A DNA stretch of 64,000 bases from positions 101,067 to 165,066 of the forward strand of contig JBEKVT010000001.1 in the NCBI GenBank assembly GCA_049997795.1, given 5' to 3'. Position numbers and translations under genes: made by a program. Positions 35,788 to 45,385 of this stretch are shown here, piece by piece. Source of the DNA: Minisyncoccia bacterium (GTDB taxonomy: Bacteria; Patescibacteriota; Minisyncoccia; Phycocordibacterales; PALSA-1337). Under the pieces are notes generated by a model. That model did no database searches, was not told where the DNA came from, and was given only the letters and a program-made list of their open reading frames with translations. Position 1 is the stretch's first letter. The number at the start of each line of letters is the position of its first letter.

Positions 35788-36126
35788 TTACTTCGTGGGA
35801 AGCGGGGCAAGCACCAAGGTGACGTTCGCGGTGCGCTTCTTTATGGGGAAGGCCGAGCCCCGCGCCATCGGCATCGAGCGCTTCAGGGTGCGGCCCTGAT
35901 CGACGCGGATCTCCTTGACGTACAGGTTCTCGGCTTCGAGCTTGAAATTATGAGAGGCATTCGAGACGGCCGAATCGATGAGGTCGGATATCGGGTGGCG
36001 GGCCTTCTTCCCGGCGTTTCCCAGGATGGCCTTGGCTTCGTTCGCATTCTTGCCGCGGATCATATCGGCCACCAGGCGGACCTTGCGGGGAGAGATCCTG
36101 TAGTTTTGAAGGGTGGCGATGATCAT
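35788..36126 (-). CDS. rplV: 50S ribosomal protein L22
   Basis: 112 aa, ...ISPRKVRLVADMIRGK... matches L22. Confidence 0.85.
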   Translation of the reverse strand: MIIATLQNYRISPRKVRLVADMIRGKNANEAKAILGNAGKKARHPISDLIDSAVSNASHNFKLEAENLYVKEIRVDQGRTLKRSMPMARGSAFPIKKRTANVTLVLAPLPTK

Positions 36127-36153
36127 GGCGGTGTGTTGTCGGGCGTCAGCGGA

Positions 36154-36504
36154 TTATTTCTTCGTGTCGGCGGCTAGGGCGGCGGCTTTGGCGGCCTGAG
36201 CAGAAGCGATCTCGGCCTCCTTGGCCTTGATCTCGAGCTCTTTCTGCATCTTGCCGCCGTGGCGGACGAACTTCTTAGTGGGCGAAAATTCACCGAGGCG
36301 GTGTCCTACCATGTCCTCGGTGACGAATACTTCTATATGCTGTTTGCCGTTGTGGACGCCGAAAGTGAAGCCGATCATCTCCGGCGAGATCTGGGAGCGG
36401 CGGGCCCAAGTATTCACCACGCCCAAAGAGGCCGGCTTCTTGCCGGAGATCTTTTTGATGATCGATTCATCGACGTAAGGGCCTTTTTTTAGCGAGCGGG
36501 ACAT
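36154..36504 (-). CDS. rpsS: 30S ribosomal protein S19 with an Ala/Lys-rich C-terminal extension
   Basis: [18 protein letters not shown]... matches S19. Confidence 0.85.
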
Positions 36505-36585
36505 TGAGGCTTGTAGAAAGAAAATCAGCTCCGAGGAGCTTCCCCGCATAGTAGCAGAGCCGTATTTTTAAGTCAATATGATATA

Positions 36586-37386
36586 ATGAGCGGCATCATT
36601 ATGAACGTCTATCTCGTGGCCGCCGTGGTCGTCATCGCCTTGACCGGGGCCGCCATGGCGGCCATTCTGGCCGTCTTGTGGCGCAAGCTCCGTGAGGACG
36701 AGAGCATGAAGCGCGAGTTCGCCTCCATCATCGCCCACAAGTTCCGCACTCCCCTGACCCACATCAAATGGTCGGCCGACAACCTGATCATGAGCGAGAC
36801 GGATCCGTACAGCAAGCGCAGTCTCGCCGACATCAAGGAATCCAACGAGAAGCTCATCAAGCTGACCGGCACGCTCCTCGAGCTTACCGATTCGGACGAC
36901 GCCGCGGTCTCGTCGTACAAATTCGAGCGCCTCGACATCTGTTCCCTGGCCCGGACCGCCGTCGAGGCTTCGAGGAAGGCTCTCCACGAGAAGAACCTGT
37001 TCCTGTCGATCAATTGCGCGGAACCGGAGATATTCGTCAGAGCGGACCGTTCGCGGATGGAGTTCGTCCTAGCCGCTCTCCTCGACAATGCCTGCCTCTA
37101 CAGCCCGCCCGGACGCGACGTCTCTGTGGCCGTGTCGGCAGAAGGCAGCGATGCCGCCATATCGGTCACCGACAACGGCATCGGCATGGCTCCGGCCGAC
37201 ATTTCAAGGGTCTTCACCAAGTTCTTCCGGTCCAAAGAGGCTAAGGCGGCCGACAGCGAGGGGTTCGGCGTCAGCTTGTATCTGGCTCAGAGCGTCGCGA
37301 GGCGCCACGGCGGTAAGATCCGGGCCGAGTCCGAAGGATCGGGCAAGGGCTCGACCTTCAGCGTCGTCCTGCCGAGAGTGAATTGA
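36586..37386 (+). CDS. Sensor histidine kinase (HisKA + HATPase_c), no adjacent response regulator
   Basis: H-box SIIAHKFRTPL, G1 DNGIGM, G2 GFGVSLYLA, and an N-terminal TM helix. Confidence 0.75.
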   Translation: MSGIIMNVYLVAAVVVIALTGAAMAAILAVLWRKLREDESMKREFASIIAHKFRTPLTHIKWSADNLIMSETDPYSKRSLADIKESNEKLIKLTGTLLELTDSDDAAVSSYKFERLDICSLARTAVEASRKALHEKNLFLSINCAEPEIFVRADRSRMEFVLAALLDNACLYSPPGRDVSVAVSAEGSDAAISVTDNGIGMAPADISRVFTKFFRSKEAKAADSEGFGVSLYLAQSVARRHGGKIRAESEGSGKGSTFSVVLPRVN

Positions 37387-37417
37387 TCAGGTATATTTTT
37401 CCGGTCTCCTCCAGTAA

Positions 37418-37852
37418 TCACTTCCTGCCGCGCCGGCGCTTGTAGAAATTCTTCGATTCGCGGGTGATAGCCAGGATGCCGATCACGCCGATATAAGAGG
37501 CGCTGACTTCGGCCGGCAGATGGTATGACGGATTGTAGAAGGTGTCCCCGACGATGAGGGCAAGCACCAGGATCGTCCAGAGGATGGCATAGAGCTCGCC
37601 GGGATGCATGGAGCTGTGCATGTGGTGCCAGCGTCGGAATTCCTTCTCGGCGCTGTATATGGCGAGAAGAGCCGTGTAGATAGCGGCGATGGCCAGGAGA
37701 ACCTCGGCTTTCGAAAGGATATTGTCTTGGTAGAAATCGTAGGCGATGGCCGCGAAGAAGATCGCCGTCCAGAAATTGACCATGTGGCGCCAGAGCTTGA
37801 ACGAACCGGCCTTTTGAAGATCGAAGTGTTTCATGTTTGAGACCTGTATCAC
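37418..37852 (-). CDS. Hypothetical membrane protein
   Basis: 144 aa with four TM helices, directly upstream of the ABC permease gene. Confidence 0.4.
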   Translation of the reverse strand: MIQVSNMKHFDLQKAGSFKLWRHMVNFWTAIFFAAIAYDFYQDNILSKAEVLLAIAAIYTALLAIYSAEKEFRRWHHMHSSMHPGELYAILWTILVLALIVGDTFYNPSYHLPAEVSASYIGVIGILAITRESKNFYKRRRGRK

Positions 37853-39090
37853 TCGAACCGCAGGGCCTCGATGGGGCTCTTCTTGGAAGCTTGGCTAGCC
37901 GGGTAGCCGCCGAAGACCAAGCCGATCACGGTGGAAACCGAGAGCCCGAGGATGACGCCGCTCCACGGGAAGACGAACTGCCAATTGAGAGCCAAGAAGT
38001 GCGACAAGGCAAAAGCGGTCAGGAAGGCCAGACCGGCGCCCAAGACGATGCCTATCACTCCGCCGATCACCGTGAGAAGAACGGCTTCCAGGAGGAATTG
38101 CGTGAGGATGTCGCGGTCTTTCGCCCCGAGAGCCTTCCTCAAGCCGATCTCTCTGGTGCGCTCGGTCACGGAGACCAGCATGATGTTCATGATGCCGACG
38201 CCGCCCACGAATAGGGCGATCGAGGCCACGGCCACAAGGAACCAGGTCAGGGCCGAGGTGATGGTGCCCAGGGTGTTGGCCAGGGTCTGCTGGGTCTCTA
38301 TGGTGAAATCGTCCTTCGTCGGATCGGTGATGTTATGCGATTCCTCCAGGGTCAGCTTGATGTAGCTTGCGGTCACCGGAACGGCCGCGTCGGAGACGGC
38401 TTGGGTGACGATGCGGTTGTAATACTTCTGGCCGGTCACGTACGTCATGGCCGTCGTATAAGGCATGATGACCATGGAGTCGAAATTGAAGAGCGAGCCG
38501 CCGCCTGACTTAGGCAACACCGCCACTATGCGGAAATTGCGGCCTTTTATCTTTATGTTCTGATTCAACGGATCCTGATTGTCGAAAAGGTATTTGGCGA
38601 CGTCGCCGCCTATCACAACCACGCTCAAATACGAGTCCACGTCGCTCTGGTCGAAGAACAGCCCTTCCGAAGGCACAAGGTTGAAAATGTCGGCGATCAA
38701 GTTGGTGCCGCCGAAGATAGTGACCTGATAGGTGTTCGGTCCGTATGAAGCCACATCGGCGCCGATCACGACCGGCATGAGCGACTCTAGGCCGGGCACG
38801 TTCGCTTTGTTCTCGAGGGCCGTCACGTCCTTCGGTTTCAATGAATCGCTGAACAGGGCGGAGGCGTTCGACGACGGATTAGTCGATACTTGGCCGGGGA
38901 TAATGGCGATGGTATTCGTGCCGAGGCCCTGGACCTCGCCCAAGATCAGGTTCTGGGCTCCGGCCCCCAAGGACACCACCAGCATGATGGCGGTTATGCC
39001 GATCACGATGCCGAGGATGGTCAAGGACGACCGCGAACGGTTGGTGGTGAGTCCGGTCAGCGAGGTCTTGAAGGTGTGGCGCCAGGTCAT
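37849..39090 (-). CDS. ABC transporter permease, FtsX/MacB family
   Basis: MTWRHTFKTSL... shows the MacB/FtsX topology: an N-terminal TM helix, a large periplasmic domain and three C-terminal TM helices. The N-terminal 123 aa of the track ORF overlap the ATPase gene and were trimmed. Confidence 0.75.
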   Translation of the reverse strand: MTWRHTFKTSLTGLTTNRSRSSLTILGIVIGITAIMLVVSLGAGAQNLILGEVQGLGTNTIAIIPGQVSTNPSSNASALFSDSLKPKDVTALENKANVPGLESLMPVVIGADVASYGPNTYQVTIFGGTNLIADIFNLVPSEGLFFDQSDVDSYLSVVVIGGDVAKYLFDNQDPLNQNIKIKGRNFRIVAVLPKSGGGSLFNFDSMVIMPYTTAMTYVTGQKYYNRIVTQAVSDAAVPVTASYIKLTLEESHNITDPTKDDFTIETQQTLANTLGTITSALTWFLVAVASIALFVGGVGIMNIMLVSVTERTREIGLRKALGAKDRDILTQFLLEAVLLTVIGGVIGIVLGAGLAFLTAFALSHFLALNWQFVFPWSGVILGLSVSTVIGLVFGGYPASQASKKSPIEALRFE

Positions 39091-39095
39091 ATGGA

Positions 39096-39821
39096 TTATT
39101 TTATGAATTCGTCCTCCGACGTCAGGCGGTCTTTGACCTTGACGTCGCTCTCGATCTCCCCGTCCATGAGCTTCATGATGCGTTCGGCATGGTCGGCCGT
39201 GGTAGCCTCGTGGGTGATGAGGACGATGGTCTTGCCGTGCTCCTCGTTCAGGTGCTGGATGATCGACATGACGTTCTTGCCGGCCTTGGAGTCGAGATTG
39301 CCCGTCGGCTCGTCGGCGAAGATGATCTCCGGATCGTTGACCAGGGCCCTGGCTATGGCCACGCGCTGTTTCTCTCCGCCGGAGAGCTCCGCCTGCTTGT
39401 GATGCATGCGCTGGCCGAGGCCGACGTCTTCGACCGCCTTCCTGGCGCGCTTCTCCCACTCATGCTCCGGCACGCTCGAGTAATAGAGGGGCAGTTTGAC
39501 GTTTTCCAGGACGGTGGTGCGCGGCAGGAGGTTGAAGGCCTGGAAGACGAAGCCGAGCTTCTCGTTCCGGATCTTGGCCAATTCGTTGCCAGAGTAAGAT
39601 GATACGTCTTTGCCGTCGAAGTGATAGACGCCGGAAGTCGGCTCGTCGAGGAGACCCAGAAGGTGGAGTAGGGTCGATTTGCCTGATCCTGACGGACCCA
39701 TGATAGCCAGGAACTCCCCTTTCCTGACGTTGAAAGTCACGCCGTTCAGGGCCACCGTGGCGGTGGCTCCGCCGTCGTGATAGACCTTCTTCAAGTCCTT
39801 GACTTCGATGATGTTAGCCAT
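39096..39821 (-). CDS. ABC transporter ATP-binding protein (MacB/LolD-like)
   Basis: Walker A GPSGSGKST, signature LSGGEKQR and Walker B IIFADEPT. Confidence 0.85.
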   Translation of the reverse strand: MANIIEVKDLKKVYHDGGATATVALNGVTFNVRKGEFLAIMGPSGSGKSTLLHLLGLLDEPTSGVYHFDGKDVSSYSGNELAKIRNEKLGFVFQAFNLLPRTTVLENVKLPLYYSSVPEHEWEKRARKAVEDVGLGQRMHHKQAELSGGEKQRVAIARALVNDPEIIFADEPTGNLDSKAGKNVMSIIQHLNEEHGKTIVLITHEATTADHAERIMKLMDGEIESDVKVKDRLTSEDEFIK

Positions 39822-41296
39822 TACTTCACGTACGTCACTACCTTGTCGCCGACAGAGAGGCCGGAAACGATCTCGATAGTGCCGTAAGAGCCCTTGAGGC
39901 CTGTCACGACGGGCACGGGAGCGTAAGTCTTGCCGTCGGGACTGACAAGGCGCACGGTCTTCGAGCCACTGGTGTCGGTGACGGCCCGATAAGGGATCTC
40001 TAAGACGCCGTCGCGCTCGTGGGTCAGGATCTCGAGATTGGCCGTCATGCCGGAACGGATGCGGCTATCCGGATTCACGAATACCAGAGTGACTTTGTAG
40101 GTCGGTACGCCTTCGAGGACGGTCTCGGCCGGATCGATCATGATGACCTTGGCCGGAAAATCCGTGTCTGAGCCGTAAGCGTCGAGAGTGCTCGACGCCA
40201 GATCGCCGACGGAGACTTTGGCGATATCGGCTTCAGGCACGTAAGCCTCTACCTTGAAATCATTGTTCTGCACCGCGAAGCCGGACTGGCCTGGCGCCGC
40301 GTATTCGCCGACATCCGGGTCGGCCCTGGTGACGACGCCGTCGATCGGCGAGACGAGGGTGTCTTGGTCGAGAAGGGCTTGGGCTTGGGCGACTTTAGCG
40401 GCCAGGGCGGCGATCGATTGGGAGGAATTGCCGGCGAGCTTCAGGTCATAATTGGATTGAGCGGTGGAAAGGCCGGTTTGCGCCGCCGTCACGGAGTCGG
40501 TGGCGGTATTCAGAACGGAAAGCCCGGAATTCATGGTCGCTACGACGGCATTGATCTGGACTTGAGTCATGCTCGAGTTCCCGGGATTCAGCGCATTAAC
40601 GACGACCGAAAGGTCGGTCATGAAGCTCTTCACGGTCGAGAGATACCCGCTTGAGCGCGAGATGAGGCTTGCCGGGTCGAGGGCAGCGCTCAAGAGGTCG
40701 GCTGACCATTGGTTGAGGATCCCTGTGATGTTCAGGCGCTCTTGGTTCAAGGCGGTCTGGATGGGAACGGTGTCGGTGCGGATATAGAGGGTCGGGTTGG
40801 AACTCTGGGGGTTGGAGAAGAAGGCATCGGTGTAATTGAACAGGGCGTTCTGGGCCTTGACGAGGCCGTCATGAGCGGCGTTCAGGGCGTCTTTCTTGGC
40901 GTTGTCGAGCGAGGTCTTCTGGACGGCCAGCTCTTCGGGCGTCAGGCCGCGCGACAGGTCGGCCAAACTAGCTTCGGCGCTTGAGAGGGCCGCCCGATCG
41001 TTGCCGCTGTCGAGCGAAGCTATAAGGTCTCCCCTCTTCACGGCATCGCCAACCTTGACATAGATCCTGGAGATGACTCCGCCCTTCTCGAAAGCCAAGT
41101 CGGCCTTGGCGATCGGCGAGATCGTGCCGGTTACGCTCACCGTTTCTATGACGTTGCCTATTTGGGCCGCGGCCGTCTCGAATATCGGGACAGAACTACC
41201 GCTTCGCGCCCAGACGATGAGGATGACTATGATGATGACGGCGAGCCCGGCGATGACCCACTTATTTTTTAAATACTGCCAATAAGATTTTTTCAT
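39821..41296 (-). CDS. Efflux periplasmic adaptor subunit (HlyD/MacA family)
   Basis: An N-terminal TM helix, a long coiled coil, and beta-barrel/MP domains (SPIDGVVTRADPDVGEY...). Confidence 0.7.
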   Translation of the reverse strand: MKKSYWQYLKNKWVIAGLAVIIIVILIVWARSGSSVPIFETAAAQIGNVIETVSVTGTISPIAKADLAFEKGGVISRIYVKVGDAVKRGDLIASLDSGNDRAALSSAEASLADLSRGLTPEELAVQKTSLDNAKKDALNAAHDGLVKAQNALFNYTDAFFSNPQSSNPTLYIRTDTVPIQTALNQERLNITGILNQWSADLLSAALDPASLISRSSGYLSTVKSFMTDLSVVVNALNPGNSSMTQVQINAVVATMNSGLSVLNTATDSVTAAQTGLSTAQSNYDLKLAGNSSQSIAALAAKVAQAQALLDQDTLVSPIDGVVTRADPDVGEYAAPGQSGFAVQNNDFKVEAYVPEADIAKVSVGDLASSTLDAYGSDTDFPAKVIMIDPAETVLEGVPTYKVTLVFVNPDSRIRSGMTANLEILTHERDGVLEIPYRAVTDTSGSKTVRLVSPDGKTYAPVPVVTGLKGSYGTIEIVSGLSVGDKVVTYVK

Positions 41297-42360
41297 GCGG
41301 TATATTGTAGCATATCGTCCTTGCGCTGTTTAATGAGACTCTCCAGCTTCTTGGCGTTGCCGTGGCTGATCAGGCCGAGGTATGACTGCACAGTCTCCGC
41401 CTTTCCTTGTTTTTGCCGGATGCCTCGGAACATGCGCTTTTTCGTCGCCGTCCGTAGCACTCGATGATCCGGGAAAGTGACCCAACCGAGATAATCGACG
41501 CCAGACGCAATAGTTTTAATTGAGATTTTTCTCGGGTGAAGTTGAAGTTTCAACTTGCTCGATAAAAACTCTTTGATCGGGGGTAAAAGCCCGATGAGCC
41601 ATTCCTTATCGCGGGAAATGATAATGAAATCGTCGGCATAGCGGATATAGTATTTCGCCTTTAATTTGTGCTTCACGAACTGGTCGAACTCGTTCATATA
41701 GACATTCACGAGAAGCTGTGAGGTCAGGTTGCCGAGAGGCAGGCCGATGCCCTTTTTTACTGATGAAAAGCTTTTGATGACCTTTGATAGAAGGCCAACC
41801 GTATTTTTGTCAGGAATACGTTCGTCGAGGATGCCTATTAAAACCTCCTGGTCTATCGACGCGAAGAACTTCCTGATATCGCATTTCAGGACCCAGACGG
41901 TCTTCGTATGATTCTGCGAGGCCTTGTAGGCGAATGACCGGAATCTGTCCATGGCCTTGTGCGTTCCCTTGCCCAGACGGCATGAGAATGAATCAGATAT
42001 GAACCTCCTGTCGAAGAACGGATAAAGTTTCCTGTGCAGTGCATGATGCAACAGCCTGTCTCTCACCTCGGCCTTGTGGATATCGCGGCGCTTGGGATCA
42101 TAGATCCGGAAAAATTCATAAGGCGAGTGCTCGTAAGTTTTGGACGCCAGATCGTTGTGGAGCGAGATGATATTGCCCATCAAATCCCGCTCGAATTCTT
42201 GGACATCCTTGCGTTTTCGTTTCCCTTTTACAAATTCCTTCCAGGCCTCAAGAAGATTTTCGAGAGAAATGATATCATCATAGGCATGAACAAATTGGAT
42301 CCGTCGCAGACCCGTAAAGCCCCCCCCCCACGCAATTTTGCCGGTTTTGAATAAGATCAA
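41293..42360 (-). CDS. Diversity-generating retroelement reverse transcriptase (Brt-like)
   Basis: DGR-specific motif GLPLGNLTSQLLVNVYM (a SQ motif instead of the group II QG) and YADDFIII. The N-terminus ENLLEAWKEFVKGKRKRK and other blocks align with Bordetella phage Brt. An adjacent TR/VR pair is present. Confidence 0.85.
   Translation of the reverse strand: MILFKTGKIAWGGGFTGLRRIQFVHAYDDIISLENLLEAWKEFVKGKRKRKDVQEFERDLMGNIISLHNDLASKTYEHSPYEFFRIYDPKRRDIHKAEVRDRLLHHALHRKLYPFFDRRFISDSFSCRLGKGTHKAMDRFRSFAYKASQNHTKTVWVLKCDIRKFFASIDQEVLIGILDERIPDKNTVGLLSKVIKSFSSVKKGIGLPLGNLTSQLLVNVYMNEFDQFVKHKLKAKYYIRYADDFIIISRDKEWLIGLLPPIKEFLSSKLKLQLHPRKISIKTIASGVDYLGWVTFPDHRVLRTATKKRMFRGIRQKQGKAETVQSYLGLISHGNAKKLESLIKQRKDDMLQYTA
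42320..42329. repeat. Homopolymeric C10 (G10 on the minus strand) tract
   Basis: Read directly from the sequence. It lies in the 5' coding region of the RT (codons W-G-G-G) and just upstream of the avd start. Confidence 0.8.
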
Positions 42361-42688
42361 AGATGCTTATCTGCTTTGGCATGGTTATCACCAGGAATTA
42401 CCGAAAATCCACAGGTATTCGCTAGGATCTCGCATTGACTCGTTATTTATAGAGATCATCGAGGCCGTCGCGGCGGCAAGCTTCTTGTCTCGCGAAGAAA
42501 AACACCCTTACGTGCGCCTGGCGATCAGAAAATCGGATGCGCTCAAGATACTTCTGATGGTCCTCTGGGAAACGAAATCGCTCGACGACAAGAAGTATAT
42601 CGCATTGTCGGTGAAATTGGACGAGGTTGGCAGAAACCTCGGCGGCTGGAGCGGCCAGCTCATGAAACAAAACTCCCCCAACAAATAG
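42338..42688 (+). CDS. avd: Avd-like accessory variability determinant (four-helix-bundle family), encoded divergently from the RT
   Basis: LPKIHRYSLGSRIDSLFIEIIEA and the C-terminal VGRNLGGWSGQLMKQ resemble Avd/four-helix-bundle proteins (compare bAvd ...VGRILGSWIARVNRK). The start is TTG at 42338 or 42347. Confidence 0.65.
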   Translation: MPVLNKIKDAYLLWHGYHQELPKIHRYSLGSRIDSLFIEIIEAVAAASFLSREEKHPYVRLAIRKSDALKILLMVLWETKSLDDKKYIALSVKLDEVGRNLGGWSGQLMKQNSPNK

Positions 42689-42712
42689 TAGGGGGAGAAA
42701 TGAAGAGAGTTA

Positions 42713-42834
42713 CGGACACCGCCGCCGGATTGTCACTGTTCCAGTCGTTGTCGAGCCTGTTGTAGTTCCAGTTCCACCTGTCGTCGTCCCAGTAGAGGTA
42801 ACGGACGTTGAGGTCGCCGTCAGCGTTGCGGTAT
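42713..42834 (-). repeat. DGR template repeat (TR), 122 nt core
   Basis: Hand alignment to the VR gives 122 nt without indels and 24 mismatches, 23 of them at TR adenines on the minus (sense) strand. The TR carries AAC/TAC/GAC codons where the VR has CTC/TTC/GGC and so on. The track ORF 42660..42860 is this repeat, not a gene. Confidence 0.8.
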
Positions 42835-43081
42835 CGTACGAAGTGCCCTCCGTGCCACAACCCCTCGAATGCTCTCGGGGTTGAATCGTATTCGGCATAT
42901 TTAATGCCCTAGCACCTCGTACCAAGTATTTTCATTTTTTAATGAAGTTCTGCATACACCACCCTACCCAAAACCTTGGTCGTGGATATTCTCGATGTAC
43001 GGATACTAGTTTCGGTAGCAAGCAACCTTGGTCGCTCACGTATTCACCTACTCCCGCCCCATCTTACCATACAGAAATCAG

Positions 43082-43109
43082 CCCTGTGCGTTGTCGCACA
43101 GGGCTGAGG
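43082..43109 (-). other. GC-rich hairpin ~55 nt downstream of the VR (cagccctgtgcg-ttgt-cgcacagggctg)
   Basis: Perfect 12-bp stem. Its position is analogous to the hairpin/cruciform 3' of the VR in the Bordetella phage DGR. Confidence 0.5.
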
Positions 43110-43155
43110 TTAAAGGTCATAGGTTCCGAAGAACAAATTGACCGAGGTTCAAGAA

Positions 43156-43779
43156 CTAACTTGCGGACACCGCCGCCGGATGGCCACTGAGCCAGAAGGA
43201 GTCGAGCCAGAAGAAGAGCCAGAGCCACCTGTCGTCGTCCCAGAAGAGGAAACGGACGAAGAGGCCGCCGCCAGCGCGGCGGTATATCGTGCCCCAGAAG
43301 AAGATGTAGCGGGTGTTGCCCTCTTCATCCTTTTTCCACTCCTCAGGGATGAGGTGCGGATTCTTCAGAAGGTAGTCGAGCACGTTGGCGTCCAGGACAG
43401 GCATCTTAGCGAGCTCCTTGCGGAGGTCGTTACCAACGATGGAACTGCCCTTCCTCTGCTTCTTCGACAAGTAGAACTCGATCTTCTTGCCGTCGACGTA
43501 GAGGTCGGGACCTTTCCGTTCGAGCTTGACGATACCGCCCTTGTGGTGCTCCTCGACCGTCCAGTTGTAGCCGGAGGGGATGACCGCATCGACACCGCAG
43601 TCGATGGCGTGTTCAACGGGCTTGATTTCGGCAAGACCTCGTTGGACATCCCTCACGCGGCCGAGGAAATCCCCGACTGTGAGAGCTTTTACTTCTTCCA
43701 GCGACTGGAAGCCGTTGCGGTTGAGTGCATGCTCGATTTCTTGAGCCAAACCAACACCGAGGATTAACTTGTCATTCAT
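43156..43779 (-). CDS. DGR variable (target) protein: N-terminal helix-hairpin-helix domain (ComEA-like), C-terminal variable region; no signal peptide
   Basis: 207 aa. LILGVGLAQEIEHALNRNGFQSLEEVKALTVGDFLGRV resembles an HhH motif. The VR occupies the last ~45 codons (...YRRAGGGLFVRFLFWDDDRWLWLFFWLDSFWLSGHPAAVSAS*). Confidence 0.75.
   Translation of the reverse strand: MNDKLILGVGLAQEIEHALNRNGFQSLEEVKALTVGDFLGRVRDVQRGLAEIKPVEHAIDCGVDAVIPSGYNWTVEEHHKGGIVKLERKGPDLYVDGKKIEFYLSKKQRKGSSIVGNDLRKELAKMPVLDANVLDYLLKNPHLIPEEWKKDEEGNTRYIFFWGTIYRRAGGGLFVRFLFWDDDRWLWLFFWLDSFWLSGHPAAVSAS
43164..43285 (-). repeat. DGR variable repeat (VR) at the 3' end of the target gene
   Basis: Cognate of the TR. The 17-nt 3' end is identical and GC-rich (IMH-like ccggcggcggtgtccg), after which the flanks diverge. 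Confidence 0.8.
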
Positions 43780-43943
43780 GACGTGTTTTTCTCCATAATG
43801 GACATGTTCGTTTAGAACTAGTCTGGTACTGTTGGGCTCCTCGTGTTGAGGTTTGCCACAGCGCTCAAGGACCTGAAGGGATTCAAGTCCCTAAACGCTG
43901 CGGCAAATGCAAGTTAGTCTTTCAAAGACCTTATTACCTTGCT

Positions 43944-43973
43944 ATTATACACCAAATGTGACTTGTATGTCAA
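43944..43973 (-). promoter_or_regulatory. Consensus sigma70 promoter TTGACA-18-TATAAT directed toward the DGR target gene
   Basis: Read on the minus strand. It is followed by a long imperfect hairpin (43853-43906) in the ~155-nt leader, then GGAG and ATG at 43779. Confidence 0.5.
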
Positions 43974-44032
43974 GATGTCCAAATCTGCCTTGAAACAAGG
44001 CCATTTCCTTCCACATAGAGAGGGTATGACGA

Positions 44033-44887
44033 TCAGCTTCCGCTCCTCATCAGTCGGCCGGGATTGCGGCGCGAGACGATGAAGACATTAGAATACTTCT
44101 TGGGAGTGCGGGTCTTCTGGCCCTTGCCCGCGGGCTTGCCCCAGCGGGTCTTCAGGCGGCGCAGGCCGCGGCCTTGGCGCTGTTCGCCGCCGCCGTAAGG
44201 ATGGTCGACCGGGTTCTGGGCGGTGCCGCGCACCGTGGGACGTATCCCCATCCAGCGCGAGCGGCCGGCCTTGCCGATGACCACCAGGCGATTCTCCTCG
44301 TTGGAAACGGCGCCGATCGAAGCCCAGGAATTCTGGTGGACTTTGCGGACCTCGGTCGAAGGCATCTTGATGTGGGTGTAGCCGGCGTCATTGGCGATGA
44401 CTTGGGCGAAAGAACCGGCCGAGCGGACAAGTTTGGCGCCGGAGCCGGGATTGATTTCGATGTTGTAGACGTATGTGCCGACCGGGATGTTCTTCAAAGG
44501 CAGGCGATTGCCTGTCTCGATCGGGGCTTTTTCGGAAACGATGAATGTGTTGCCGACTTTCATGGTCTTCGGCAGGAGGACGTAGCGCTTGGCGCCATCC
44601 CTGTAGGCGACCAGGCCGATGTAGCCGGTGCGGAAGGGATCGTACTCGACGGTCTTCACTGTGGCCGGGATGTCTTTCTTGTCATACAGGAAATCGACGA
44701 GGCGATAGAGCTTCTTGTGGCCGGCGCCCTTGTGGCGGACGGTGATGCGGCCGAAAGCGTTCCTGCCGACGTCGCGCTTGAAACCTGTTGTGAGCGGCTT
44801 GTACGGCTCGGACGCCGTCAAGTATTCCTTGAACGGCAAGGTTGTCATGTGGCGGCGCGATTTGGTTGTGGGTCGGTATGTCTTCAT
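44033..44887 (-). CDS. rplB: 50S ribosomal protein L2
   Basis: 284 aa with the GRNxxGxITxRHxGGGHK pattern. Confidence 0.9.
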   Translation of the reverse strand: MKTYRPTTKSRRHMTTLPFKEYLTASEPYKPLTTGFKRDVGRNAFGRITVRHKGAGHKKLYRLVDFLYDKKDIPATVKTVEYDPFRTGYIGLVAYRDGAKRYVLLPKTMKVGNTFIVSEKAPIETGNRLPLKNIPVGTYVYNIEINPGSGAKLVRSAGSFAQVIANDAGYTHIKMPSTEVRKVHQNSWASIGAVSNEENRLVVIGKAGRSRWMGIRPTVRGTAQNPVDHPYGGGEQRQGRGLRRLKTRWGKPAGKGQKTRTPKKYSNVFIVSRRNPGRLMRSGS

Positions 44888-44896
44888 GGAGCTTGA

Positions 44897-45385
44897 TTAT
44901 ACGAAGTCTATCTTCTCGCCTTTCTTGACGGTGACGATCGCTTTTCTCACGCCGGAAACGGTGCCGCGCCGGCCCTTGACGAAGACATTCTTCGACGGCA
45001 GGTTGACCATGGCGACTTTGACCGGAGTGACCTTGTACAGGGCGCGCATGGCCTTGGCCACTGAAGATTTGTTCGCATTGGAAGTGACCTGGAAAGTGTA
45101 AGCGCCGGATTGGCTCAAGATGCCGGACTTCTCCGTGATGTGCGGACGGATGATGCTCTCGGTCGCGCTTCCGAACGAGCCTTTCGGCAGGGCAGGACCG
45201 GCCTTCCCGGCACCCGCGTCCTTTGTCACGACCGCCGAGGAGATCTTTTCGGGTTTCGGGGACGAGAACTGCTTGGCGCCCTTATCTTTGGCATCGCCCT
45301 TCTTCACTGTCTTGGCCAATTCGGCCGTGGCCTGAATGTGGCTCTGCTCGTGCTTCTTGTCTTTTCTGAATCCGAATAATGGCAT
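44897..45385 (-). CDS. rplW: 50S ribosomal protein L23 with a ~70-aa N-terminal extension
   Basis: The C-terminal core SIIRPHITEKS... matches L23. Confidence 0.75.
   Translation of the reverse strand: MPLFGFRKDKKHEQSHIQATAELAKTVKKGDAKDKGAKQFSSPKPEKISSAVVTKDAGAGKAGPALPKGSFGSATESIIRPHITEKSGILSQSGAYTFQVTSNANKSSVAKAMRALYKVTPVKVAMVNLPSKNVFVKGRRGTVSGVRKAIVTVKKGEKIDFV

Follow-up and report, generated by a model that had tools for sequence, protein, structure and literature searches.

A hypermutable homopolymer in the putatively overlapping 5' ends of avd and the reverse transcriptase gene as a candidate reading-frame switch of a Patescibacteria DGR

The stretch of DNA analysed here, 64,000 nucleotides in length and referred to as the window, carries a DGR in which the accessory protein gene avd is oriented opposite to the template repeat (TR) and to the reverse transcriptase (RT) gene. 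The features of the locus are as follows, with positions counted from the first letter of the window.

41293-42360, minus strand: RT ORF as first read, TTG start, 355 aa, body intact (ORF translation and PF00078 match)
42270-42278, plus strand: extended -10-like box TGaTATCAT proposed for avd, antisense within RT codons 28-31
42278-42382, minus strand: RT leader ORF, out of frame at tract length 10, 34 codons (computed)
42286-42288, plus strand: proposed true avd start, a leaderless ATG, antisense to the RT His25 codon
42286-42354, plus strand: leader ORF, out of frame at tract length 10, 22 codons (MNKLDPSQTRKAPPPRNFAGFE*; simulation of lengths 7-13)
42307-42309, minus strand: CTG codon where the family has its canonical RT start Met (N-terminus alignment)
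42320-42329, no strand assigned: hypermutable homopolymer, C10 on the avd strand and G10 on the RT strand
42338-42688, plus strand: Avd body, a probable four-helix bundle accessory protein
42380-42382, minus strand: putative upstream RT start ATG conserved in the sub-lineage (MPKQISIFDL...), antisense to the avd His15 codon, in frame only at tract lengths 9 or 12
42700-42834, minus strand: TR (135-nt alignment with the variable repeat, VR)
43078-43107, minus strand: GC-rich 13-bp hairpin, downstream of the VR and of the target stop codon
43151-43285, minus strand: VR, the 3' end of the target gene (TR alignment)
43156-43779, minus strand: DGR target gene, 207 aa (ORF list)

The RT matches PF00078 with an E value of 4e-23, and thousands of RT homologs with the same avd/TR context are found in Patescibacteria. 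The match of Avd to PF22296 (bAvd-like) scored 35.6 bits, below the curated cut-off of 40, but gains support from synteny conserved in 78 loci. In the 135-nt alignment of TR and VR, all 24 core mismatches were A-to-N changes at TR adenines, and the six non-A mismatches were confined to the final 13 bases, which follow the conserved GGCGGCGGTGTCCG block. Apart from tract length, the differences from the window number 25 in the same-strain contig L016, all of them within 43182-43278 in the VR, and one in contig L097, at a TR-adenine site (43271). The features that define a DGR were accordingly found at this locus, namely adenine-specific TR/VR differences, a DGR-clade RT near the TR, and ongoing VR diversification; as judged from the VR-confined differences in L016 and L097, the DGR is active in the window strain.

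A sequence-only reading of the window had drawn attention to the homopolymer, which is present as it described: the plus-strand letters at 42320-42329 are CCCCCCCCCC, and the RT strand reads G10. This is the sole homopolymer longer than 7 in the window, the remaining C and G runs being 6 at most (four C6 and two G6), and a C10 run is expected about 0.1 times in the window under a first-order Markov model. The length of the run is far beyond chance expectation and, at C10 compared with a next-longest G/C run of 6, shows the slippage-prone length, anomalous for the genome, that is expected of a contingency locus. Two details of the same reading were also confirmed. W-G-G-G is encoded at RT codons 11-14 of the assumed TTG-start ORF (41293-42360, reading MILFKTGKIAWGGGF), and no in-frame ATG, GTG, or TTG occurs from the run to the ENLL block (codons TTT ACG GGT CTG CGA CGG ATC CAA TTT GTT CAT ...). 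The gap between the run and the TTG at 42338, the first codon of a 116-aa avd ORF and then taken as the avd start, is 8 nt instead of the 9 nt given.

Tract lengths were sampled by look-ups anchored on the avd and target proteins; the exact look-up with the 355-aa RT missed, as the stored ORF entry (P0129) has Leu as its first residue. For the window strain, 17 further loci (14 distinct contigs) were obtained from ENA, JGI, and Logan assemblies, and a scan of metagenome contigs with a flank pattern and a variable gap gave one match, L016. Among these consensus contigs, the tract was C9 in L097 and L098, C10 in nine distinct contigs and the window, and C11 in L007 and L016. The flanks of these contigs were 99.97-100% identical, and the tract was the sole difference in L007 (over 12.6 kb) and L098 (over 6.5 kb); outside the VR, tract length was essentially the only difference among near-identical contigs from other samples. 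Three more species with 100% identical RT were also polymorphic (G8/G10/G11, G10/G11, and G9/G10), and in three of the four species avd in-frame and out-of-frame alleles occurred side by side. The tract changes length in nature while its flanks stay constant, and the length polymorphism among otherwise identical genomes that marks contingency loci was observed here at the consensus level.

The sequence-only reading had offered a sequencing or assembly error as the other explanation of the run, and this option was not borne out, with independent assemblies of one strain showing 9, 10, or 11 bases. An artefact without biological role is very unlikely, even though Illumina chemistry is error-prone at long G runs and some contigs are broken or faulty here: L011, in which the run is G13 and two errors lie close by, stops 30 nt past it, L014 stops 22 nt short of the run, and L107 begins exactly at it. 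The run is found in the window and in the 17 further same-strain loci (14 distinct contigs) drawn from ENA, JGI, and Logan, the orthologous site carries a repeat in about 70 species assembled by many groups, the consensus contigs differ by up to 3 nt (G8 versus G11), and runs of at least 8 are essentially absent elsewhere in the same contigs. Some of the length calls that differ by one base, as well as contig breaks, could stem from Illumina errors at long G runs. The contig breaks at the tract also give an indirect hint of heterogeneity within populations.

In all 78 Patescibacteria relatives with upstream sequence, avd is divergent from RT at the same junction. G/C runs of at least 8 were found 63 times at this junction, compared with twice elsewhere in 473 kb of the relatives. 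Across species the run measures between 6 and 14, the total junction length is tightly held at approximately 53-55 nt, and about 80% of the loci have poly-G specifically, including those in genomes with a GC content of 31-45%, in which homopolymers are commonly A/T runs. Seven loci have, at this position and in place of the run, another simple repeat with units of 2, 4, or 7 bases, which on the avd strand are (AGCAATC)11, (AC)16, (CCAG)10, (AACG)8-9, (AGCC)x2, and (AG)n; none of the units is a multiple of three, and none introduces a stop in any avd-strand frame. The position of the tract is conserved across a large Patescibacteria DGR clade. The sequence-only reading had called for a comparison with related genomes and regarded the lack of a homopolymer at orthologous loci as fatal to its idea; since a homopolymer or other simple repeat occupies this exact site in about 70 species, that outcome did not arise.

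The high retention of poly-G despite low genomic GC and the tightly held junction length would also suit a fixed, sequence-specific element that matters for its G/C identity and not for its mutability, such as a site in the DGR RNA that a protein or an RNA recognizes, a surrogate for ribosome binding, a poly-Pro linker of Avd, or a programmed transcriptional slippage site; slippage would furthermore explain why most assemblies are out of frame with intact-looking DGRs. However, unrelated repeats replace the run in seven loci, its length varies both between species (6 to 14) and within them, and an Rfam scan of 41200-43900 at E values up to 1 gave no match, so that we consider a fixed element improbable. 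Transcriptional slippage is opposed in particular by the tetra- and heptanucleotide repeats, which are not substrates for RNA polymerase slippage. Such repeats are classic DNA-level contingency repeats.

The TTG at 42338 proved untenable as the general avd start. The aligned codon is an ordinary Leu codon (TTG 34, TTA 22, CTN 15): 37 of 79 loci have TTA or CTN here, and in 43 of 78 readable loci the codon is not a start codon. Upstream of it, the avd frame reads P-[RK]-[LI]-L-P-V-L, and in 11 loci the 40 codons that follow the repeat include no canonical start. The window itself has TTG at avd codons 1 and 4. The ATG at 42286, on the opposite side of the run, is reflected in the codon usage of the RT gene to which it is antisense: the RT His25 codon is CAT in 64 loci and CAC in 2, compared with 423 and 332 (56% CAT) at other conserved His columns, and RT Ile30 is ATC in 58 of 77 loci (75%) against a baseline of 27%. 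Furthermore, 68 of 79 loci have a TAnnnT ending 7 nt ahead of the antisense ATG, 58 of 79 have the TG, and the frame of this ATG is open up to the repeat in all 63 loci, versus 7 of 63 for each other frame. These signatures indicate that the conserved avd start is probably ATG 42286, upstream of the run; accordingly, the run would lie within the avd reading frame. Both signals are partly due to protein constraint, as conserved RT codons coincide with the open antisense frame and with some of the promoter-like motif. A two-hexamer sigma-70 scan of 42100-43200 returned no promoter; such a scan does not score extended -10 promoters, and its null result is thus uninformative rather than contrary.

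The sequence-only reading had placed the run inside the RT coding region, which does not hold for the family as a whole. In most relatives, RT begins at an ATG approximately 13 nt downstream of the run (M-x-R-I-Q-F), and the run is therefore outside RT. In the window's sub-lineage, the canonical Met is missing, its position being occupied by CTG in the window and by TTG in the close relative L021. The TTG at 42360 was judged unlikely as the RT start, since homologs without the canonical Met conserve an ATG equivalent to 42382. Homologs P0004, P0005, P0008, and P0013 begin with MPQQISIFDL, and the frame of the upstream ATG is open to the repeat in 7 of 10 loci without the canonical ATG versus 1 of 9 loci with it. 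From these comparisons, we infer that RT in this sub-lineage crosses the run, as had been proposed, but from ATG 42382 and not from TTG 42360. Because ATG 42286 of avd and ATG 42382 of RT each lie upstream of the run, the run would be part of both reading frames. A role of the G run as the RT ribosome-binding site, with its end about 13 nt before the ATG, was rejected, as no SD motif is seen in this organism even before ribosomal-protein genes and the run is replaced by unrelated repeats in some loci.

When tract lengths of 7 to 13 were simulated, an ATG-started avd (133 or 134 aa) together with an ATG-started RT was obtained only at lengths 9 and 12. At length 9, the leader ORF from 42286 is fused to avd in a product of 133 aa, and the natural C9 contigs L097 and L098 encode the fused avd (...GMNKLDPSQTRKAPPHAILPVLNK...). 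At length 10, only TTG starts are left, including that of the 355-aa RT ORF. Length change alters the reading frame, as in contingency loci, with the start codons deduced from codon signatures. The earlier expectation that a one-base slip frameshifts RT was correct insofar as the ATG-started RT exists only at 9 or 12; the ORF is not simply destroyed, because every one of the three frames has some upstream start codon. The G10 of the window, previously taken as the ON length, would instead represent an off or low state, given that ATG-started RT and avd ORFs occur only at 9 or 12. As TTG starts are available at length 10, this "off" may be only "low".

The tract might alternatively act mainly on transcription, as the -35/-10 spacer of a leaderless RT promoter or within a bidirectional avd/RT promoter region, its length tuning promoter strength like a rheostat. 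In 23 of 56 relatives, TAnnnT (TAGAAT, TAGACT, or TAGTAT) is located at exactly -13, leaving 7 nt to the RT ATG; the run directly adjoins the hexamer in 24, and the distance to a conserved TGG(C/T)AA motif clusters at 16-18 bp. L034 has two more G10 runs right before a -10-like hexamer and the ATG of other genes, one of them arranged as TTGCCA-18 bp-TATAAT. The frames of the tract are also evenly spread: the avd ATG is in frame in 15 of 63 species-representative loci, the other two frames accounting for 24 each, so that there is no in-frame enrichment (15/63 does not exceed 1/3), and a non-coding tract would give the same. In the window, however, the near-optimal -35/-10 arrangement of those 23 relatives fails, since the run is followed by CTTTAC GGGT CTG with neither a TAnnnT hexamer nor an ATG. 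In addition, the seven loci with repeats of 20-77 nt cannot hold a 17-bp spacer and lack the hexamer as well, and a transcriptional role leaves unexplained the CAT/ATC bias, the conserved antisense ATG, and the coding-like stretch P-[RK]-[LI] that separates the tract from the Avd body. A mainly transcriptional role consequently appears rather unlikely to us. The rheostat and frame-shift models are not exclusive, and both may act together.

Taken together, these findings suggest that the run is probably a simple-sequence contingency tract that gates avd, and in this strain also RT, via the reading frame. The phase-variation switch put forward in the sequence-only reading is thereby retained as the best reading of the locus, with the start codons and the ON length corrected. 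In the mechanism that we propose, the 5' ends of avd and RT would overlap antisense across approximately 97 nt, with the tract inside the overlap. Transcription of avd would start from the extended -10 box hidden in RT codons 28-31, as suggested by the codon signatures, and translation from ATG 42286, at or very near the RNA 5' end; about 11 codons would be followed by the tract, read as poly-Pro, and then by the Avd body. Slipped-strand mispairing at replication would add or remove one base and thus move avd into or out of frame. In the sub-lineage that has lost the canonical RT Met to CTG, RT would begin at ATG 42382 across the tract, and since this start is on the tract's other side, the same slip would shift RT too, the in-frame conditions of the two genes coinciding by geometry. 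At length 9 or 12, both proteins would be made from ATG starts and mutagenic retrohoming could run. At length 10 or 11, both ATG-started ORFs would end after 20-34 codons, only weak TTG starts would remain, and diversification would be off or low, leaving the current VR frozen. Relatives with the downstream RT ATG have a TAGAAT-like -10 box 7 nt ahead of it, immediately next to the G run, and in them the spacer of the RT promoter is probably tuned by tract length as well; in that geometry, a 17-bp spacer would correspond to the avd in-frame length.

We give even weight for and against the broader proposition that a whole CPR DGR clade possesses a built-in, heritable, and reversible switch of this kind, in which a repeat lies in antisense-overlapping, leaderless avd and RT 5' ends with mutually embedded promoters and starts, and a brief period of diversification may be followed by lock-in through slipping out of frame. 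In L016 the VR is fully rewritten and the tract is yet C11, which fits the switch model only with switching back after diversification. A VR change was seen in two of four non-C10 contigs versus none of nine C10 contigs; with a Fisher p of about 0.08, calculated by hand, this is suggestive only and is not used as support.

Little has been established, to our knowledge, about the natural control of DGR activity. Unchecked retrohoming would erase useful variants as fast as they are made. If the model is correct, a tract gating Avd, and RT in some lineages, would explain why most natural DGR loci look static yet intact, why identical VRs persist across samples (one VR is found in more than 20 contigs at length 10), and how symbionts with small genomes can afford a hypermutator. 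A stochastic mutation switch would then gate a targeted mutation machine, amounting to two-tier bet-hedging in which the diversified product is a surface-binding protein. Since the tract and the VR are approximately 900 nt apart, long reads in existing metagenomes can phase both. The model would also mean a systematic annotation error, in which avd and RT starts are mis-called and truncated according to tract length; the annotated lengths by tract state are 295, 347, or 355 aa for RT and 113, 116, 162, or 176 aa for avd. MNKLDPSQTRKAPPHAILPVLNK and MPKQISIFDLIQNR are candidate marker peptides for proteome searches. Each gene's start and -10 box would be embedded in the codons of the other, which would be an unusual dual-strand coding constraint, and the arrangement could provide a compact natural design for switchable DGR-based tools for directed evolution.

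The locus resembles the intragenic homopolymer contingency loci of Neisseria (pilC/lgtA), Campylobacter jejuni (poly-G), and Helicobacter pylori (poly-C/G) in having a G/C run, 8-14 nt long, close to the 5' end of an ORF, a length that differs by one or a few bases among clonal relatives, coexisting in-frame and out-of-frame alleles, and alternative units that are not multiples of three. Unlike in these loci, where surface antigens or restriction-modification enzymes are gated, the gated function would be that of a DGR accessory protein and RT, the tract would be shared by two ORFs that overlap antisense, and the hosts are uncultivated Patescibacteria. A similar correspondence is found with the phase-variable type III mod genes (phasevarions), which carry (AGCC)n or (AGTC)n: at L070 and L076 the tract is replaced by (AGCC)n, as read on the avd strand and close to where the ORF begins, and in both systems a single repeat would gate a regulator-like or enzyme function with population-level effects. 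The protein family is different, however, and the output here would be targeted DNA diversification and not methylation-dependent gene regulation.

The (TA)n repeat of Haemophilus influenzae hifA-hifB and the poly-G/C promoter tracts of Neisseria porA/opc and Bordetella fim share with our locus a repeat between divergent genes or inside the -35/-10 spacer, and in many relatives the G run likewise adjoins a -10-like box, the spacer measuring 16-18 bp. In contrast to those tracts, the window has no -10-like box, the family-wide codon evidence suggests that the tract acts in translation, on the avd strand, and the long-repeat variants are incompatible with a spacer role. In the literature searched for precedent, we found no DGR described as having a hypermutable tract or antisense 5' ends that overlap, and none for which an on/off switch was proposed. 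The DGR of Bordetella phage BPP-1 (mtd-avd-TR-brt) has in common with the window locus the RT, Avd, TR/VR with adenine-specific changes, and a hairpin after the VR, whereas its avd, TR, and brt are co-oriented and contain no repeat tract. The altered avd/TR arrangement is typical of CPR DGRs and has been catalogued as the "B3" architecture by Wu et al. 2018 (PMC5758913), in whose CPR set it accounts for 90%.

A run of ten C on the plus strand, corresponding to ten G on the strand of the reverse transcriptase (RT), was read at 42320-42329, as the sequence-only reading had noted. The run is the sole homopolymer longer than 7 in the 64-kb window, where the remaining G/C runs reach at most 6 and about 0.1 C10 would be expected under a first-order Markov model. 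The element around the tract is a bona fide diversity-generating retroelement (DGR) with the following parts.

41293-42360, minus strand: RT open reading frame (ORF) as first read, TTG start, 355 aa, reading MILFKTGKIAWGGGF
From TTG 42338, plus strand: ORF of the accessory gene avd, 116 aa, bAvd-like match
42834-42700, minus strand: template repeat (TR), paired with the variable repeat
43285-43151, minus strand: variable repeat (VR), at the 3' end of the target gene
43779-43156, minus strand: DGR target gene, 207 aa

The VR differs from the TR at 24 TR adenines. The avd gene is placed between TR and RT on the strand opposite to RT, so that avd and RT diverge from the tract, and 8 nt separate the tract end from TTG 42338. 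When the codons of the RT ORF were read in frame, no ATG, GTG or TTG was found between the tract and ENLL, in agreement with the earlier claim.

The DGR cassette (36100-44900; cf. locus L001, 1-8511) lies between rplB (L2) and rpsS (S19) within the S10 ribosomal-protein operon, together with a MacB-like permease, an ABC ATPase, an RND/HlyD-like adaptor, a small ORF, and a HisKA kinase. A few CPR DGRs with interleaved ribosomal genes were reported by Wu et al. 2018 (PMC5758913). At 41293-41296, the sequence ATGA joins the RT stop codon to the ATG of the 491-aa adaptor gene that follows, an overlap suggesting co-transcription and translational coupling of RT with the efflux-like genes. About 50 nt past the target stop codon and the VR, the minus strand carries a GC-rich hairpin with a perfect 13-bp stem and a loop of 4 nt, and TTTCTG after it (43078-43107); this hairpin looks like the inverted repeat/terminator common downstream of DGR VRs. 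A second, weaker one occupies 42675-42694, between the TR end and the avd stop. No Shine-Dalgarno-like purine motif was found within 30 nt of the ribosomal-protein gene starts in the window (rplB, rplW, rplD, rplC, rpsJ, and other genes), and translation initiation in this organism appears to proceed largely without such pairing.

The avd and target proteins were looked up by exact match, which yielded independent ENA, JGI, and Logan contigs of the same strain, 99.95-100% identical to the window. The tract length, an assembly consensus call in every case, was 9 in L097 (JGI 3300038417) and L098 (ERZ27250022), 10 in nine distinct contigs and the window, and 11 in L007 (a 657-kb JGI contig) and L016. 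The tract was the sole difference from the window in L007 (12.6 kb) and L098 (6.5 kb), and the gene-called avd proteins of the C9 contigs were 176 and 162 aa, reading ...GMNKLDPSQTRKAPPHAILPVLNK... The sequence-only reading had also considered a homopolymer sequencing or assembly error. In three samples, contigs stop at the tract or no more than 30 nt away from it: L011 runs 30 nt beyond the tract, in error-laden sequence with G13 and two nearby substitutions, L014 stops 22 nt short of it, and the 5' end of L107 falls exactly at it. These ends could reflect within-sample length heterogeneity or sequencing failure at the run. The recurrence of lengths 9, 10, and 11 in independent contigs argues against an error, and we conclude that the tract is real and length-variable, with changes that would arise by replication slippage.

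Besides tract length, L016 differed from the window at 25 positions, all in the VR (43182-43278), and L097 had a single difference, at a TR-adenine site of the VR. These differences indicate that the DGR is active in the window strain. Public annotations (P0001, P0121-P0129) call this RT as 295, 347, or 355 aa and this avd as 113, 116, 162, or 176 aa, varying with tract length and pipeline; NCBI PGAP gives 295 and 113 aa, respectively.

A homolog search returned thousands of RT homologs from Patescibacteria. In most, the protein begins with M-x-R-I-Q-F some 15 residues ahead of ENLL, downstream of the run, and every homolog with an ORF open further upstream reads GGG/GGGG about 4 codons ahead of the Met. 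The comparison with related genomes that had been proposed earlier was made on 80 species-representative loci from genome_contigs. The avd gene was divergent from RT in all 78 loci with upstream sequence, and a G run of 6-14 nt (mostly 8-11) occupied the same position in about 70 of the 80. G/C runs of at least 8 numbered 63 at the junction versus 2 elsewhere in 473 kb. Seven loci (L024, L025, L027, L053, L070, L076, and L093) had another simple repeat at this position, with units of 2, 4, or 7 nt: on the RT strand (GATTGCT)11, (GT)16, (CTGG)10, (CGTT)8-9, (GGCT) in two loci, and (CT)n. These repeats are stop-free in every avd-strand frame; on the RT strand, in contrast, the heptamer includes TGA. 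In L024, the heptamer array keeps the antisense ATG in frame with avd, and most other arrays put it out of frame. The swapping of repeat types at a fixed site argues that mutability, not G/C sequence, is conserved. Furthermore, three more species with 100%-identical RT and identical flanks were polymorphic (G8/G10/G11, G10/G11, and G9/G10); it is among their contigs that L107 begins exactly at the tract.

The only two G/C runs of at least 8 away from the junction are both G10 and both in L034 (3404-3413 and 5253-5262), each followed immediately by a -10-like hexamer and an ATG. The gene behind one of them encodes a signal-peptide protein (TTGCCA-18 bp-TATAAT-6 nt-ATG), and the other run stands before a second Avd-like four-helix-bundle gene; these bacteria may reuse the arrangement as a phase-variable promoter module.

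The starts of the two genes were reconsidered with the following sites.

42270-42278, plus strand: avd -10-like box, TGnTAnnnT
42286, plus strand: proposed avd ATG, complement of the RT His25 codon
42309-42307, minus strand: canonical RT Met position, CTG in the window and TTG in the close relative L021
42382-42380, minus strand: upstream RT ATG

At the codon aligned to TTG 42338, 34 loci have TTG, 22 have TTA, and 15 have CTN. Since these are synonymous Leu codons, the aligned position is a translated Leu, and TTG 42338 was rejected as the general avd start. The avd frame upstream of this Leu reads P-[RK]-[LI]-L-P-V-L. In eleven loci, the first 40 codons past the repeat hold no canonical start, and in many more a start there would cost avd its helix 1; avd translation would therefore start upstream of the repeat. 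RT His25 has ATG as its complement in 65 of 79 loci, and its CAT:CAC ratio is 64:2 versus 423:332 at the remaining conserved His positions in these genes (binomial p about 1e-14, our estimate). RT Ile30 is ATC in 58 of 77 loci versus a 27% baseline. Read on the avd strand, the two sites together form TGnTAnnnT (TAnnnT in 68/79 and TG in 58/79 loci), ending 7 nt before the antisense ATG, which is the geometry of a putative extended -10 promoter driving a leaderless mRNA; part of this signal coincides with conserved RT residues. The frame from the ATG to the repeat was open in 63 of 63 loci, versus 7 of 63 for each of the other two. An in-frame avd was not enriched among the representatives (15/63), which is compatible with a non-coding tract, neutral switching, a mostly-off regime, or transcriptional slippage.

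For RT, homologs without the canonical Met begin with MPQQISIFDL..., using an ATG that lies antisense to avd His15 and corresponds to ATG 42382 in the window. This upstream frame was open to the repeat in 7 of 10 loci without the canonical ATG versus 1 of 9 with it. TAnnnT (TAGAAT, TAGACT, or TAGTAT) stood exactly 7 nt before the RT ATG in 23 of 56 loci (other offsets, at most 3 each), and the G run abutted the hexamer in 24. The spacer to TGG(C/T)AA, which is antisense to avd codons 1-2, was 16-18 bp, and under that geometry 17 bp is the avd in-frame length. The window has no TAnnnT hexamer after the run. In many relatives, the tract probably also tunes the RT promoter.

The frames in the window were simulated for tract lengths (n) of 7-13.

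n = 9 or 12: avd from ATG 42286 full length, 133 or 134 aa; RT in frame from ATG 42382 (MPKQISIFDLIQNRQNCVGGGF...)
n = 10 (window): avd from ATG 42286 stops after 22 codons (42354); RT from ATG 42382 stops after 34 codons (42278); TTG 42360 (RT) and TTG 42338/42347 (avd) are left
n = 11: avd stops after 21 codons; RT is left with TTG 42335 only

The in-frame lengths of avd and RT necessarily coincide, since each ATG is aligned codon for codon, on the antisense strand, with the frame of the opposite gene. The antisense overlap of the two ATG-started ORFs spans 42286-42382, with the tract mid-way. The coding is mirror-image, the RT ATG being the complement of avd His15 as the avd ATG is that of RT His25, so that each start codon is fixed by the other gene's His codon. 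In the other polymorphic species, a tract of G10 or G9 gave the antisense-ATG ORF its full length of 133 or 141 aa, and the ORF was truncated in sister contigs. In the window strain, a functionally off state would correspond to lengths 10 and 11, at which the TTG starts may allow some leaky expression.

Taken together, we consider it fairly probable that this simple-sequence contingency tract gates DGR activity, in that a length change would shift avd in or out of frame and, in the window's sub-lineage, RT as well. The switch first proposed from the sequence is thus retained, with other start codons and another ON length, and with avd as the main family-wide target.

The inverted-avd layout matches the B3 architecture, which was reported in 90% of CPR DGRs (PMC5758913). 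Literature searches that paired DGRs with phase variation, homopolymer, orientation, or Patescibacteria turned up no description of a repeat tract or on/off switch in these elements. From established knowledge, the tract is mechanistically like the contingency loci of Neisseria, Haemophilus, and Campylobacter and the promoter-spacer tracts of the hifA/B type; the novel aspects are the function that is gated, the overlap on both strands, and the conservation across a whole uncultivated phylum-level radiation.
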